From a virus (taxonomy: Duplodnaviria; Heunggongvirae; Uroviricota; Caudoviricetes), in IMG/VR virus record IMGVR_UViG_2939127364_000004: a stretch of 38,955 bases of DNA. One strand, written 5' to 3'. The position numbers were made by a program, and so were the translations under genes. Under the pieces are notes generated by a model, which had not been told where the DNA came from, did not search any database, and was given only the letters and a program-made list of their open reading frames with translations. Shown in pieces: positions 18,022-37,502 of the stretch (its first letter is position 1; every line of letters begins with the position of its first letter).

Positions 18022-18610
18022 TTTTCCTCACATATGTCATATAGTAAAGGATTATATATACCGTTGTTTTGGACGCTCAAACAGCGAATCAGATCAAATA
18101 AAACGCACATTTGTTAACATTTACACAAAGTCTGCGTGGGATATTCTGAAAGAATATCCATAATGTGGAGAGAATCTATTGAAGTGCATGGTGCCGGGTG
18201 CCTCCCGGTGAACAAAATGTTCGTGATACCTGTCGGCGACAGAAAAGGTTAATGGTATCACCCCACCGCACAGGGGGATTCACCATGCAGGAGTTTTCTT
18301 AGCAAACTCACTGCGCGCCCGGCAACTCCCAACCACATAAAATGCGGAGTTTGTGGTATTTATGCATATAACTCGCAGGAATTATCTTAAAAAACTGATG
18401 TCGATCCGGATTAAAAAGAAGCAGGTCATCATCAGATGACTGGAAAAAAGGAAAACAAAAAATACTCATCATACAGTTTTGATTGCAGGGATGAGCCTGC
18501 TATGCACAATATGCAGAATATAAGCAAGATAAAAATATGCAGGCATATTATTTCGGATTTTGTTATTAACACAACCTTTTTAATAATCATTTGGCATACA
18601 ATAAACCAGC

Positions 18611-20962: not shown

Positions 20963-21118
20963 TTACTCCTCAGGTTCGTAAGCTGTGAAGACAGCGACCT
21001 CCGTCTGACCGGTTCGGATTCGCACCTCGCAGAGGTCTTTCCTCGTTACCAGTGCCGTCACTATGACGGTTAAACAGATGACAATCAGTGCGACTAACAT
21101 CGCCTTTTGCTGCTTCAT
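20963..21118 (-). CDS. hokD: Hok/Gef-family type I toxin HokD (51 aa)
   Basis: MKQQKAMLVALIVICLTVIVTALVTRKDLCEVRIRTGQTEVAVFTAYEPEE; stable GGCGAGGGA-tttc-TCCCTCGCC hairpin 10 nt past the stop at 20932-20953. Confidence 0.85.
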   Translation of the reverse strand: MKQQKAMLVALIVICLTVIVTALVTRKDLCEVRIRTGQTEVAVFTAYEPEE

Positions 21119-21838
21119 AGCCTGCTTCTCCTTGCCTTCCGGCGCGTAAGAGGCTAACCTACATGTGCAAAGCATGAAATTGGCCTCAGATTAATGTTAA
21201 GCGTCTTGCCGGACGCGTAATGTTATCTGGGGCTTTTCTCTATCTGCCTTTGGTGTTCATGCCTGAGGCAGATAGCCTCAAGCACCCGCAGCAATTCTAC
21301 TTAACTCCCGTCACCTCGCCAATATAAAATCAATCAGAAAGGCGATCCATAAGAACAACAGCAAGACAATAAATTGCCATTACAGCCGCAATAGCTAGCG
21401 CACATTTGAGAACCAGCACGACAACCTCCTGTATTGGACGTACACCAGTTCTGATAAATATGAGGCTGTCTCATCATTGATTCAATATAACTATTGGGTA
21501 TAGTTTCTGTGATTTTGTTCTGTAGAAATGGAACACAACAACCAGTCACCACCAGCACTTCTTTAAATACGCCAAGTCCGACGCAAGCTAACCTTCTAGT
21601 CCGCTTTGAGCGAGGAGCGGACCAAACCCGGCCAACTGACTCTTAAAGGGGCCGCAGGAATTTTTCGTCTGAACTTTCGAAGCTCCTCTCCCTGAAGACA
21701 GAAAACTTCTGTGTGCTGTGGGAATATTGAATCTTTGCCTTAGATATAAATAATTTTATCCCGCCTGAAGTTTACATTATTTTATTTATCTGTTTTTCTA
21801 AATCAGACTGCACTCCTTACTTAAATCAGGAGCCAGTC

Positions 21839-30034: not shown

Positions 30035-30460
30035 TCAATGCACAGCCACAATATTTCCTGCAGGGCCACCACGATTCATCTGGTTGAAACCAGCGATCGC
30101 CACTGCGACAAAATCATCAGCGTCTCTCACCAGTCGTTCCCGCGTCTCCACTAGTTCCCGAAAATAGGCTGAGCTATGGCTGCGCATTCGGGCCACCAGC
30201 AGAGGTGGCATTGCTTTTTCGATAGCTGGTAACAACGCCTGAATTTTTTCAACTGCATCAGGGGTGTCTTTCTCTACCCAGCGGAAAATTTTCTGGGTAT
30301 TGCGAGCCAGGGCTTCCGGATGGCTGTCGTCATACAGTTCTGGGAACGTCATACCCAGTTCAAAATAAGCCCTGGTTATTTCAGCTGCCGGAACTTTTTC
30401 ACCGTCCGGATGCGCCCAGGCATTCATCGCCATGCGGATGTGTTCATGCTTGATTTTCAT
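30035..30460 (-). CDS. ydaT: YdaT-like protein (cII position, 141 aa)
   Basis: MKIKHEHI... N-terminus and position after Cro-like gene as in Rac ydaS-ydaT; 17-nt overlap with upstream gene. Confidence 0.5.
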   Translation of the reverse strand: MKIKHEHIRMAMNAWAHPDGEKVPAAEITRAYFELGMTFPELYDDSHPEALARNTQKIFRWVEKDTPDAVEKIQALLPAIEKAMPPLLVARMRSHSSAYFRELVETRERLVRDADDFVAVAIAGFNQMNRGGPAGNIVAVH

Positions 30461-30725
30461 GAATCAAGCTCCTAGAAAGTGGTTGTGTTAACATTTTGGT
30501 ATCTTCCAGCTCGGGCCAAATATTCATCCAATCAAAAGGCCTTAGTTGCTGACGTGTAACTTCACCATTACTGGCTCGCTCAATAAGGACACATAACGAT
30601 GCCCCTAACACTTGACCTTTACTCAATGCCTTTCTTAGATAACCGATGCTGGTACCACACTCGCATGCAAACATACGCTGTTCATCTGACGAAAGAGAAT
30701 TGAGAAATATTCTTAATTCTTCCAT
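30444..30725 (-). CDS. ydaS: Cro-like HTH regulator (YdaS family)
   Basis: AAGGAG SD; 93 aa; divergent from repressor across operator-containing intergenic region. Confidence 0.5.
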   Translation of the reverse strand: MEELRIFLNSLSSDEQRMFACECGTSIGYLRKALSKGQVLGASLCVLIERASNGEVTRQQLRPFDWMNIWPELEDTKMLTQPLSRSLIHENQA

Positions 30726-30754
30726 AGCTACTCCTTAGTAAACACAGCAAAGAA

Positions 30755-30830
30755 TACCCATAGGTAAACAAAAGTCAATACCCACAGGTTGTTTACCTTG
30801 CAGTAATCGCATCTATTATTTACCTATGGA
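30755..30830. promoter_or_regulatory. OR-like operator cluster: three copies of 12-bp near-palindrome TACCCATAGGTA in the divergent repressor/cro intergenic region
   Basis: TACCCATAGGTA 30755-30766, TACCCACAGGTT 30779-30790, TTACCTATGGAC ~30819-30830; TATTAT -10 hexamer directly before repressor ATG. Confidence 0.5.
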
Positions 30831-31245
30831 CAAATATGAATTTAGACGACAGCAACTCATCAAAATTCGTGATGAGAAATGCGATGGTAAAGCGGTTAAC
30901 GTGGCCAGAAAGATCGGGCGCGAGCCTTCTTATGTATCAAGAATGTTGTACCCAGAGGGGAAAAAGGGAAAAAAACGGATCGCTGATGATATGGTGGAGA
31001 TTATCGAAGAGTCCTTTGGGTTACCCCGGGGATGGATGGATGGTATCGTTTCATCATCAACGAACACAGCCTCCAGTTATGAAACAAGGGTTCTAACGCC
31101 ACGACAACGTATTTTTTTAGATCTCTTAGACGAACTGCCAGAAAGTGAAGCGGATAACTTATTAAAAACTCTTGAAGAGAAAAAACAGTATTACAATATG
31201 ATCTACGAAGAAATCCGTAAAAAGAAAGCACAAAACGCATCATAG
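30826..31245 (+). CDS. racR: cI-like prophage repressor, probably translated from a leaderless mRNA
   Basis: 139-aa ORF with HTH-like GKAVNVARKIGREPSYVSRML; no SD, ATG immediately follows a -10-like TATTAT; divergent from cro-like gene. Confidence 0.5.
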   Translation: MDKYEFRRQQLIKIRDEKCDGKAVNVARKIGREPSYVSRMLYPEGKKGKKRIADDMVEIIEESFGLPRGWMDGIVSSSTNTASSYETRVLTPRQRIFLDLLDELPESEADNLLKTLEEKKQYYNMIYEEIRKKKAQNAS

Positions 31246-31287
31246 CTCACCAAACAACTAGTCACCAGTTAAGACACCGCAAAAAGT

Positions 31288-31324
31288 TACCCATGGGTAT
31301 TTACTTTTTAAATACCTATGGGTA
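31288..31324. promoter_or_regulatory. OL-like operator pair downstream of repressor gene
   Basis: Perfect palindrome TACCCATGGGTA at 31288-31299 and TACCTATGGGTA at 31313-31324, 25 bp centre to centre. Confidence 0.5.
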
Positions 31325-31499
31325 TCCTTCTTTTCATACCAACCCACCCCGCCCCACAGAATGCAGGGCAATACTTCGAGTTACCAGGCAGTGGTCAGGG
31401 GTTAAGTAGCCAGCCCGAGGCGTAAGAACATGACGGCGGGATTCAAATTTTGCAGTGCAGCAGTTAGTTCCGCCACCCGGCGTTAAGGGGAGAGATAAG

Positions 31500-31634
31500 A
31501 TGGTGCATTACGAAGTAGTTCAGTATTTGATGGATTGTTGCGGTATCACTTACAACCAGGCTGTGCAGGCTTTACGCAGCAACGACTGGGATCTCTGGCA
31601 GGCAGAAGTCGCTATACGTAGCAACAAGATGTGA
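31500..31634 (+). CDS. ydaG: Small early-left protein YdaG-like (44 aa)
   Basis: ATG 31500 with GGGGAGAG SD; size and order match Rac ydaG as recalled. Confidence 0.45.
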   Translation: MVHYEVVQYLMDCCGITYNQAVQALRSNDWDLWQAEVAIRSNKM

Positions 31635-31644
31635 GATTCGCAAA

Positions 31645-31800
31645 ATGCAAAAAATCGACCTCGGCAACAACGAATCCCTGGTGTGCGGCGTGTTCCCCAA
31701 CCAGGATGGAACGTTCACTGCCATGACGTATACCAAAAGCAAAACATTTAAAACCGAAACTGGTGCGCGCCGATGGTTGGAGAAGCACACAGTAAGCTAA
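31645..31800 (+). CDS. ydaF: Small early-left protein YdaF-like (51 aa)
   Basis: MQKIDLGNNESLVCGVFPNQDGTFTAMTYTKSKTFKTETGARRWLEKHTVS; size and order match Rac ydaF as recalled. Confidence 0.45.
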   Translation: MQKIDLGNNESLVCGVFPNQDGTFTAMTYTKSKTFKTETGARRWLEKHTVS

Positions 31801-37027: not shown

Positions 37028-37222
37028 ATGAGATATGACAATGTTAAACCATGTCCATTTTGTGGTTGTCCATCAGTAACGGTGAAAGCCATTTCAGGAT
37101 ATTACCGAGCGAAGTGTAACGGATGCGAATCCCGAACCGGTTATGGTGGAAGTGAAAAAGAAGCACTCGAAAGATGGAATAAACGAACCACTGGAAATAA
37201 TAATGGAGGTGTTCATGTATAA
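37028..37222 (+). CDS. ralR: Restriction alleviation protein RalR/Lar (64 aa)
   Basis: MRYDNVKPCPFCGCPSVTVKAISGYYRAKCNGCESRTGYGGSEKEALERWNKRTTGNNNGGVHV. Confidence 0.8.
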   Translation: MRYDNVKPCPFCGCPSVTVKAISGYYRAKCNGCESRTGYGGSEKEALERWNKRTTGNNNGGVHV

Positions 37223-37424
37223 AATTACCGCCACTATTGAAAAGGAAGGTGGCACTCCTACTAACTGGACAAGATATTCAAAATCTAAACTAACGAAATC
37301 AGAATGCGAAAAAATGCTCTCAGGTAAAAAAGAAGCAGGCGTTTCCAGAGAGCAGAAAGTAAAACTGATAAATTTTAATTGCGAGAAACTTCAGTCCTCG
37401 AGAATTGCATTGTATTCAAATTAA
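37215..37424 (+). CDS. ydaC: YdaC/RcbA-like small protein (69 aa)
   Basis: ATG 37215 with GGAGGTG SD overlapping ralR 3' end; position before xis. Confidence 0.5.
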   Translation: MYKITATIEKEGGTPTNWTRYSKSKLTKSECEKMLSGKKEAGVSREQKVKLINFNCEKLQSSRIALYSN

Positions 37425-37502
37425 AACTTCATAGCTGATTATTAATAATCAACATCGGGCGTCAATTTCAGTCTAACATTGGCGCCTGCCAGAGGTGATG
37501 CG

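Follow-up and report, generated by a model that had tools for sequence, protein, structure and literature searches.

A divergent gene pair in a Rac-type prophage

The window, which is the whole 38,955-nucleotide stretch of Caudoviricetes DNA analysed here, contains a gene for a 139-aa protein and, divergent from it across a gap of 100 bp, a cro-like gene, ydaS (Table 1). The ydaS gene has the Shine-Dalgarno sequence AAGGAG (complement of 30731-30736) and its product is 73% identical to the Cro protein of phage mEp043. It is followed by ydaT, whose product is near-identical to PDB entry 3c4r (E = 3.6e-92, one substitution over a 141-residue alignment) and close to the YdaT of CP-933P (8bt1, E = 4.9e-80). 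A YdaT-box spans the ydaT start codon, within the 3' end of ydaS; at up to one mismatch this motif gives 3 matches against 0.23 expected. The same motif has been footprinted with the YdaT proteins of CP-933P (PMC9986795) and K-12 (PMC11879457), and boxes of this type are what leftward transcription is driven from in K-12 Rac and CP-933P (PMC11879457, PMC8630535); the box in the window is presumed to be the activator site of a PRE-like promoter reading toward the 139-aa gene.

The host element is a Rac-family lambdoid prophage at ttcA, with an immunity cassette unlike that of K-12. It has kilR, recET and intR, and in this ttcA-integrated prophage the 139-aa gene occupies the place that racR has in K-12. 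Identical loci are annotated intR-xisR-...-recET-racC-ydaE-kilR-sieB-ydaF-ydaG-repressor, with ttcA adjoining intR. The cassette is carried by 821 of 5,426 complete E. coli genomes (about 15%), and the 139-aa protein is labelled "hypothetical protein" in every one of these carriers; the well-studied K-12 racR type is present in 1,086.

Table 1. Genes, candidate operators and predicted promoters around the repressor gene (positions in the window; strand left empty for DNA sites)
Feature	Position	Strand	Description
ydaT / cII-like activator gene (141 aa)	30035..30460	-	Pfam YdaT_toxin; PHROG 'CII-like transcriptional activator'
ydaS / cro-like gene (93 aa)	30444..30725	-	Pfam YdaS_toxin, sub-threshold
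YdaT-box	30450..30467		TTGATTTTCATGAATCAA, exact TTGATTN6AATCAA
PR-like promoter of ydaS-ydaT	30751..30778	-	-35 TTGACT (30778-30773), 16-bp spacer, -10 TATTCT (30756-30751)
OR1	30755..30766		TACCCATAGGTA, exact TACC-N4-GGTA; overlaps PR -10
OR2	30779..30790		TACCCACAGGTT, 1 mismatch; abuts PR -35
PRM-like promoter of repressor gene	30792..30819	+	-35 TTTACC, 16-bp spacer, -10 TATTAT (30814-30819); consensus scan
OR3	30794..30805		TACCTTGCAGTA, 1 mismatch; left half = PRM -35 (TTTACC)
Weak match over start codon	30821..30832		TACCTATGGACA, 3 mismatches to 12-mer
Repressor gene (139 aa)	30826..31245	+	HTH DNA-binding domain, residues 1-75
OL2	31288..31299		TACCCATGGGTA, perfect palindrome, exact match; abuts PL -35
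RNA hairpin OL2 + OL1 + U-rich tail	31288..31334	+	terminator-like match; low confidence
PL-like promoter	31300..31328	+	-35 TTTACT (31300-31305), 17-bp spacer, -10 TATCCT (31323-31328)
OL1	31313..31324		TACCTATGGGTA, exact TACC-N4-GGTA; overlaps PL -10

Candidate operators and promoters on both sides of the repressor gene

An initial annotation had placed 12-bp palindromic operators on both sides of the 139-aa gene, and the sites that it quoted (OR1, OR2, OL2, OL1) all lie where it had put them. The 39-kb window has three copies of exact TACCNNNNGGTA where 0.20 would be expected, a number reached in 0 of 100 shuffles, and all three exact sites fall within 570 bp around the repressor gene, flanking it. 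When up to one mismatch is allowed, TACC-N4-GGTA has 14 matches in the window (7.5 expected), 5 of which lie within 30755-31324, while the full 12-mer at 3 mismatches gives 13 matches (11.9 expected). The two degenerate upstream sites have no significance by window statistics alone; they were accepted because their position matches that of the sites in relatives.

These relatives are 43 loci, from E. coli to Xanthomonas, Neisseria and Burkholderiales, plus coliphage mEp043; many of them were found through the protein, so that their ancestry is not independent. At least two sites occur at -73/-48/-33 from the ATG in 36 of the 43 loci, where the background of TACC-N4-GGTA is 0.21 sites per kb. 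The position of OR1 (-71 to -73 from the ATG) is kept in 39 related loci, both the position of OR2 (-47/-48) and its GGTT variant are kept across the family, and the position of OR3 (-32/-33) is likewise conserved; in mEp043, as in the closest relatives from E. coli and Salmonella, its counterpart is a perfect TACC..GGTA. Three conserved candidate operators exist upstream, as the initial annotation had claimed, but the third is OR3 and not the weak match at the ATG, which was probably the site then meant. This match has a right half-site with two mismatches and lies partly inside the coding-constrained ATGGAC; it is found only in close relatives, reads TACT in Salmonella and is absent in mEp043, Serratia and Yersinia, and it was rejected as third operator in favour of OR3 on conservation. 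In the window OR2 and OR3 each depart from the consensus.

In close relatives the variation within sites is confined to the central 4 bp, and the half-sites are invariant despite divergence to about 45% identity, which argues for constraint. The recognition helix of the repressor (EPSYVSRMLY) covaries with the operators: the three loci with an altered helix are without TACC-N4-GGTA sites, and in two of them a differently spaced repeat stands in place of the usual sites. This covariation bears on whether the palindromes are bound by the Cro-like YdaS, or by a host factor, only, the 139-aa protein having some other role. YdaS homologues are co-inherited with the repressor gene and divergent from it in most related loci; since they and the sites occur in the same loci, co-occurrence cannot separate the two proteins. 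However, within the 139-aa family the sites are lost or altered where the helix has changed, relatives that have this DNA-binding domain combine it with a C-terminal domain of lambda-CI type (E = 1e-27 in a profile search) and are annotated cI in mEp043, and in lambdoid phages repressor and Cro use common operators. Binding by YdaS or a host factor only is scarcely credible, and the 139-aa protein is taken here as the reader of the sites.

An independent promoter scan returned precisely two divergent promoters, PRM and PR, both overlapped by sites. The two stand face to face within the 100-bp gap. PR has 9 of 12 consensus matches and agrees with the family consensus, in which GGTA-TTGA is built into OR2 and GGTA-NNNT into OR1; across the family, the flanks of OR2 and OL2 encode TTGA (-35) and those of OR1 and OL1 encode TANNNT (-10). 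Downstream, 42 bp with no ORF separate the repressor stop codon from OL2. The pair of sites that had been likened to OL is present, and a comparable pair, spaced 24-27 bp (nearly all 25-26) and built into a promoter, occurs in 32 of the 43 loci; NNNT comes after the second site across the family, its T being present in 100% of loci, which gives TANNNT. PL, with 8 of 12 consensus matches, is under the scan threshold and was read from the sequence; its layout is the same as that of PR and agrees with the family consensus. Homology with other Rac types begins at its predicted +1, about 31335. PL is read as the promoter of ydaG-ydaF, in an operon that probably continues to kilR onward and recET. 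In the 165-nt PL leader common to heteroimmune Rac types, no structured RNA or nut/put-like element (z = -0.03) and no Rfam family was found; a mir-2041 match (E = 0.035) was merely the OL hairpin.

That hairpin could suggest that the downstream palindromes are mainly an intrinsic terminator of the repressor transcript, their likeness to the upstream sites being incidental or a dual use. It has 16 pairs (31288-31324) followed by TCCTTCTTTT, with a free energy of -22.9 kcal/mol (z = -5.8), there is no further terminator-like signal from the repressor stop to PL, and in mEp043 a canonical terminator lies apart from OL, upstream of it. However, any two similar palindromes with Y-R-Y-R centres pair, so that the hairpin arises in part by itself; relatives from Salmonella and other E. 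coli do not have the T tract; and termination does not explain why the pair keeps its -35/-10 flanks in 32 of 43 loci. Selection for the hairpin is not demonstrable, since the T tract is specific to a lineage and pairing of the YRYR centres is nearly automatic. A mainly terminating role is highly improbable and an exclusive one very unlikely, and even an added terminator role, on top of that of operator, is rather unlikely. The downstream pair is therefore treated below as OL1 and OL2.

The initial annotation had noted that the repressor ATG closely follows a -10-like TATTAT with no Shine-Dalgarno sequence, which the positions bear out: the hexamer stands 6 nt ahead of the ATG, whose A is the predicted +1 of PRM, and no Shine-Dalgarno-like sequence was found 5' of it. 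No ATG, GTG or TTG occurs in frame from the upstream stop to 30826, the N-terminus MDKYE is conserved in the family, and a -10-like hexamer ends 6-7 nt 5' of the ATG in 29 of 43 loci. The spacing of the hexamer, together with the lack of an upstream in-frame start and of a Shine-Dalgarno sequence, makes it likely that the repressor mRNA is leaderless, with its 5' end on the A of the AUG or no more than two bases from it. Conversely, the mRNA could have a leader if transcription came from farther upstream, for instance from a YdaT-activated promoter of the PRE type in ydaS, with TATTAT no functional -10; the PRM -35 is weak (4 of 6 matches), and the YdaT-box upstream is of the kind that drives leftward transcription in K-12 Rac and CP-933P. 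This is improbable, since the hexamer is kept 6-7 nt before the ATG in distant relatives and a leadered transcript without Shine-Dalgarno sequence would also need SD-independent initiation. Moreover, leaderless and PRE-type repressor transcripts coexist in lambda and CP-933P, so the two explanations are not exclusive.

The 139-aa repressor and its proposed mode of action

Pfam gave no match for the 139-aa repressor. Structure model and fold searches reveal a lambda-repressor-like (XRE-fold) HTH as N-terminal domain, which is 65-82% identical to the DNA-binding domain of lambda-CI-type S24 repressors; a disordered linker (residues 76-87) leads to a helical, DicA-like C-terminal domain (about 88-139), which has two helices in the model. 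In the alignment, this 50-residue helical domain stands where relatives carry PF00717. A profile search of the PDB gave a match only for the S24 C-terminal domain of relatives, namely the C-terminal domain of lambda CI, and none for the DNA-binding domain. Matches to the ADAR1 Z-alpha domain in a single-protein PDB search (E about 0.08) were taken as chance, because both the model and the fold searches point to an HTH of XRE type. NCBIfam NF007257 aligns to residues 86-136 (E = 2.8e-5), with the whole protein below its cut-off (23.9 vs 101 bits) as the C-terminus alone aligns; BLASTP against DicA gives 1e-7, and the C-terminal 46 residues are 33% identical. Homology to K-12 RacR was rejected (BLASTP E = 2.3). 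As the S24 peptidase is replaced by a DicA-like C-terminus, RecA-stimulated self-cleavage is unlikely. No credible LexA box was found in the window, and no antirepressor gene is annotated there; antirepressors are small and diverse proteins that may act in trans.

The promoter scan, the geometry of sites in relatives, the covariation of helix and operators and the family-wide -10 hexamer support the lambda-like OR/OL layout that had been proposed. With good confidence, then, the region can be read as a lambda-type OR/OL immunity switch of a Rac prophage, run by an unannotated 139-aa repressor. This kind of system is well known; the type of repressor and its TACC-N4-GGTA operators are a new example of it.

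In the mechanism proposed, the 139-aa protein would be the maintenance repressor, a dimer or higher oligomer whose HTH is predicted to recognise palindromes of 12-14 bp, (T)TACC-YRYR-GGTA(A). When bound at OR1 and OR2, it would close the PR-like promoter, and with it the replication genes as well as ydaS and ydaT (the cro and cII analogues); binding at OL1 and OL2 would close the PL-like promoter of the leftward ydaG-ydaF operon. From OR2, whose centre is at -41.5 relative to the predicted PRM start, it probably activates its own weak promoter, and OR3, inside the PRM -35, could in the putative order of site occupancy be filled at high repressor concentration and confer negative autoregulation. 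YdaS is presumably a competitor of the repressor at its sites, and the YdaT-box would be where YdaT acts. Induction would proceed not by RecA-stimulated self-cleavage, but probably by an antirepressor or another signal.

Since the PL operon probably includes kilR and the PR operon includes ydaS and ydaT, the sites are likely, by analogy, to be the control point of prophage-borne growth inhibition in carrier strains; the repressor is not homologous to RacR, and the argument on toxicity is therefore by analogy with K-12 only. On a broader scale, the cassette, consisting of the repressor DNA-binding domain, Cro and the TACC-N4-GGTA operators with their built-in promoters and leaderless repressor start, may be an ancient portable immunity module of gamma- and betaproteobacterial prophages, in which helix and half-sites are invariant and the C-terminal domain is swapped between an S24 peptidase and a DicA-type helical one. 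This reading is put forward tentatively. If it is true, the Rac variant of about 15% of complete E. coli genomes has an SOS-insensitive repressor, which could give cross-immunity to free mEp043-type lambdoid phages, because these share the operator half-sites; family members would in that case owe their specificity to the central YRYR bases or to the spacing of the sites. The naming of repressor, operators and promoters fills an annotation gap in a very common prophage. The cassette also offers an operator consensus with natural variants, in which one DNA-binding domain is combined with differing induction domains, and it predicts, for a given resident cryptic prophage, the incoming lambdoid phages that it may exclude.

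Comparison with known immunity systems

In lambda, the repressor and cro genes are divergent, three operators lie between face-to-face promoters, and a second set, beyond the repressor gene, is found at the leftward promoter. A -35 is directly adjoined by one site and a -10 overlapped by another, OR2 lies near -42 of the repressor promoter, the -10 is about 7 nt before the cI AUG, cI is leaderless from PRM, and a cII-type activator gene comes after cro. The window shows the same layout, including the cII-type gene after the cro-like one, with candidate operators and a repressor mRNA that is probably leaderless. Differently from lambda, the DNA-binding domain of the repressor is not similar in sequence to the CI one, the operators (TACC-N4-GGTA) have 12-14 bp instead of 17 bp, the centres of OR2 and OR3 are 15 bp apart, two OL sites only were detected, and there are no rex genes and no S24 C-terminal domain.

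The coliphage mEp043 is closer: the repressor DNA-binding domain is 65% identical, the OR layout is the same, with TACC-N4-GGTA sites, OL is again a pair, and 6 nt separate the -10 from the ATG. Conversely, its cI has 228 aa, and the relatives aligned with it have a C-terminal domain of S24 type; before OL there are an extra gene and the canonical terminator, and an N gene follows PL. A search of the open-access literature found nothing relevant on the operator sequences or their consensus, nor an operator study of mEp043.

The K-12 Rac prophage has the same backbone and slot (ttcA, intR, recET, kilR, sieB, ydaF/G) and the same arrangement of paired operators, of other sequence, on either side of the repressor gene, and about 98% sequence identity to it resumes at the predicted PL +1. 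However, the two repressors are unrelated, the K-12 operators are ATTAGGC..GCCTAAT-like, racR has a Shine-Dalgarno sequence and a leader, and the similarity of the YdaS proteins is merely local (for K-12 RacR, YdaS and YdaT: PMC5700373, PMC5700377, PMC11879457).

In CP-933P, the PaaR2 repressor has a leaderless mRNA, as established by 5' RACE, together with OR and OL/PL (PMC8630535). Other common features are an intergenic region of about 100 bp and a short repressor without peptidase domain (PMC8630535, PMC9986795), as well as a closely related YdaT and an identical YdaT-box motif. Nevertheless, the repressor begins MDKYE here and MQKKE there (PaaR2 being compared by the text of the paper), the operators are different, with a reported consensus GTTTAGTAA (PMC8630535, PMC9986795), and the paaA2-parE2 toxin-antitoxin genes are absent 3' of the repressor gene in the window.

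Finally, the size and build of the repressor resemble those of the short repressors of DicA (Qin) and Gifsy type, which have about 135-150 aa, an HTH and a helical C-terminal domain, with no peptidase, and are controlled by antirepressors (PMC3121763). The Rep protein of Salmonella phage SPC32H (PDB 5d50) is similar in size and in its combination of an HTH with a helical C-terminal domain. Differently from DicA, the N-terminal domain of the 139-aa repressor is not DicA-like.

Palindromic sites and predicted promoters around the repressor gene

The palindromes proposed in the initial annotation, together with the TATTAT hexamer, are all present at their places, and its lambda-like reading of these sites as OR and OL is correct, with refinements in the position of the third operator and in the lack of homology to RacR. 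The window (38,955 bp) contains three exact copies of TACC-N4-GGTA, whereas 0.20 are expected; none of 100 shuffles reached three, and all three copies flank the 139-aa gene. With at most one mismatch, 14 matches are found in the window, five of them within 30755-31324. Three sites do lie upstream of the gene, as first proposed; the third is the conserved OR3, instead of the match at the ATG. In the latter (30821-30832), the right half, inside the coding-constrained ATGGAC, deviates at two bases, and the match is present in the closest relatives only, TACT being found at that place in Salmonella; as a candidate operator it is unproven. The OR3 counterpart is a perfect TACC..GGTA in the nearest relatives and in coliphage mEp043.

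Features of the immunity region of the window
Feature	Coordinates	Strand	Sequence	Remarks
ydaT-like gene	30035-30460	minus		
ydaS/cro-like gene	30444-30725	minus		
PR (predicted)	30778-30751	minus	TTGACT, 16-bp spacer, TATTCT	consensus scan
OR1	30755-30766		TACCCATAGGTA	overlaps PR -10
OR2	30779-30790		TACCCACAGGTT	abuts PR -35
PRM (predicted)	30792-30819	plus	TTTACC, 16-bp spacer, TATTAT	consensus scan
OR3	30794-30805		TACCTTGCAGTA	left half is PRM -35
139-aa ORF (repressor)	30826-31245	plus		
OL2	31288-31299		TACCCATGGGTA	abuts TTTACT of PL
PL (predicted)	31300-31305 (-35); 31323-31328 (-10)		TTTACT; TATCCT	8/12 matches, read by eye
OL1	31313-31324		TACCTATGGGTA	overlaps TATCCT of PL

The ydaS/cro-like gene is separated from the repressor gene by 100 bp, and ydaG-, ydaF- and sieB-like genes lie to the right of the latter (features read across 30.0-32.6 kb). 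A consensus promoter scan of 30400-31700 returned two promoter-like sites only, PRM and PR, each overlapping palindromes; PL is missing from the output, since its matches fall below the scan threshold. Downstream of the repressor gene the PL-side layout repeats that of the PR side, with one site abutting the -35 and the other overlapping the -10. For both PR and PL, the two sites are centred near -16.5 and -41 relative to the predicted start, and the OR2 centre is at -41.5 from the predicted PRM start. By geometry and analogy, the repressor at OR1/OR2 and OL1/OL2 would block PR and PL; OR2 would be suitably positioned for activation of PRM, a promoter with a weak -35, and OR3, within this -35, would serve for autorepression. 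YdaS would play the part of Cro, in competition for these sites, and YdaT that of cII.

The RNA spanning OL2 and OL1 (31288-31334) is predicted to form a hairpin of 16 pairs (-22.9 kcal/mol, z = -5.8), with the U-rich UCCUUCUUUU after it; no other terminator-like signal is found from the repressor stop codon to PL. Two palindromes so similar will pair largely as a matter of course, and relatives lack the T tract; the hairpin could, with low probability, double as a terminator of the repressor transcript.

Conservation of the sites and the protein that probably reads them

Over its N-terminal 75 residues, the repressor shares 65-82% identity with many repressors of 221-242 aa that contain PF00717 (S24), including cI of the lambdoid coliphage mEp043. 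In these relatives the C-terminal domain is lambda-CI-like (E = 1e-27). One genome per species was scanned, which gave 41 loci from Enterobacterales, Aeromonas, Neisseria, Burkholderiales, Nitrosomonadales and Xanthomonadales; mEp043 and the window bring the set analysed to 43. In 36 of the 43, at least two TACC-N4-GGTA sites (at most one mismatch) occupy positions near -73, -48 and -33 relative to the ATG, and 32 have a downstream pair with a spacing of 24-27 bp, nearly always 25-26; site density elsewhere in these loci is 0.21 per kb. GGTA followed by TTGA, the -35 part, is conserved beside OR2 and OL2, and GGTA followed by NNNT, the -10 part, at OR1 and OL1, the final T being present in 85-100% of loci. 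In close relatives from E. coli and Salmonella (92% and 83% protein identity, respectively), substitutions within sites are confined to the central four bases, the TACC and GGTA half-sites being invariant. In Klebsiella L008, L010 and L012-L014, encoding 233-aa relatives (counted from the MDKYE start), the -73 site is kept and usually the -33 one, the middle site is absent and the sequence between the outer sites differs, which points to a variant arrangement of OR.

A helix-3 segment of the ..SYVSRMLY type is found in every locus bearing TACC-N4-GGTA sites. The sites are lacking in three loci, two from Advenella and one from Nitrosomonas: the Advenella proteins (L041 and L045, distant relatives with 35-38% identity) have HPAS/TISH.L in the helix, their loci carrying ATACCG-N10-CGGTAT repeats upstream of the repressor ATG instead, and the Nitrosomonas one has SYVNRIFY in helix 3. 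Through this covariation the sites are linked to the repressor family. The outer half-site of the Advenella repeat resembles TACC-N4-GGTA, with different spacing. A Cro homologue is divergent from the repressor in most loci and is thus co-inherited with it (the window and mEp043 Cro proteins are 73% identical); it probably shares the same sites.

The repressor and its transcript

A Pfam search of the repressor gave no family, and its PHROGs class is transcriptional regulator. The AlphaFold2 model (pLDDT 86) contains a helical N-terminal domain with an HTH (helices 23-30 and 34-40), a basic loop (41-53), a disordered linker (76-87) and a two-helix C-terminal domain. No solved structure for the DNA-binding domain is detectable by sequence; next-ranked in fold searches are XRE-fold HTH domains, including the N-terminal domains of P22 c2, 434 and lambda CI. 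Similarity to DicA of prophage Qin is found over the C-terminal 50 residues (NCBIfam partial match, E = 2.8e-5; BLASTP, 1e-7), and the C-terminus aligns closely with that of the vB_EcoS-673R7 repressor, whose DNA-binding domain differs; thus, the protein joins the DNA-binding domain of one family to the C-terminal domain of another. The S24 peptidase is absent, although present in the nearest DNA-binding-domain relatives. Control by antirepressors has been proposed for such short repressors (PMC3121763); neither a LexA box nor an antirepressor was found within the window.

The TATTAT at 30814-30819 ends 6 nt before the ATG, with no Shine-Dalgarno-like sequence, as first noted. Upstream of 30826, the frame contains no ATG, GTG or TTG as far back as the preceding stop codon, and the N-terminus MDKYE is kept throughout the family. 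In 29 of the 43 loci, 6 or 7 nt separate the best -10-like hexamer from the ATG, so the expected start is the A of AUG, and we infer a leaderless repressor mRNA. Lambda cI is a precedent for such a transcript. The PaaR2 mRNA of CP-933P is also leaderless, according to 5' RACE and N-terminal sequencing (PMC8630535). In addition, a leadered transcript is probably made from a promoter activated by YdaT. An exact YdaT-box, TTGATTN6AATCAA (TTGATTTTCATGAATCAA, 30450-30467), spans the start codon of ydaT within the 3' end of ydaS, a placement footprinted in CP-933P and K-12 Rac (PMC9986795, PMC11879457). The window has three YdaT-box matches at up to one mismatch, against 0.23 expected. One with a single mismatch (CTGATTATTAATAATCAA, 37435-37452) lies between rcbA and xisR, some 50 bp ahead of xis/int, and might mark a promoter of the cII type (PI-like) for the integration genes.

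Relation to other Rac prophages and to lambda

The same DNA is found, identical, in complete E. coli genomes, annotated there as Rac prophage integrated next to ttcA, in the order intR, xisR, rcbA, ralR, recT, recE, racC, ydaE, kilR, sieB, ydaF, ydaG and immunity cassette, followed by a replication gene, a DUF977 gene, a cargo block and then lysis and head genes. The cargo block (about 21.8-28.1 kb of the window), between the replication and nin/Q-lysis modules, is non-phage and encodes an MFS transporter, a LysR regulator, a DUF2254 protein and a BCCT transporter. Rfam matches above gathering score are RalA antitoxin sRNA (37221-37399, minus), sok antitoxin RNA adjoining hokD (21113-21287, minus) and STnc100 (18132-18318, minus). 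Among 5,426 complete E. coli genomes, 821 carry the cassette and 1,086 the K-12 racR type, and in all 821 carriers RefSeq labels the repressor 'hypothetical protein'.

The cassette differs from that of K-12: the repressor shows no similarity to RacR (E = 2.3), and the YdaS proteins show local similarity only. The layout is shared with K-12 Rac, where the sites are of the ATTAGGC..GCCTAAT type and number three upstream of racR and two downstream. When the window, K-12 Rac and the Rac-like phage vB_EcoS-673R7 are aligned, the operator pairs are unrelated in sequence and identical in position, and from about 31335, the predicted PL start, all three are about 98% identical, including the 165-nt leader before ydaG (about 31335-31500), for which no significant RNA structure is predicted (z = -0.03) and no Rfam match was found. 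On this alignment, the sharp change at about 31335 is a classic mosaic junction of heteroimmune relatives. No paper on these operator sequences or on mEp043 operators was found in the literature searched, and the immunity type of the window appears undescribed. Its architecture is canonical: the overall layout parallels that of lambda and is known from experimental work on lambda, K-12 Rac and CP-933P.
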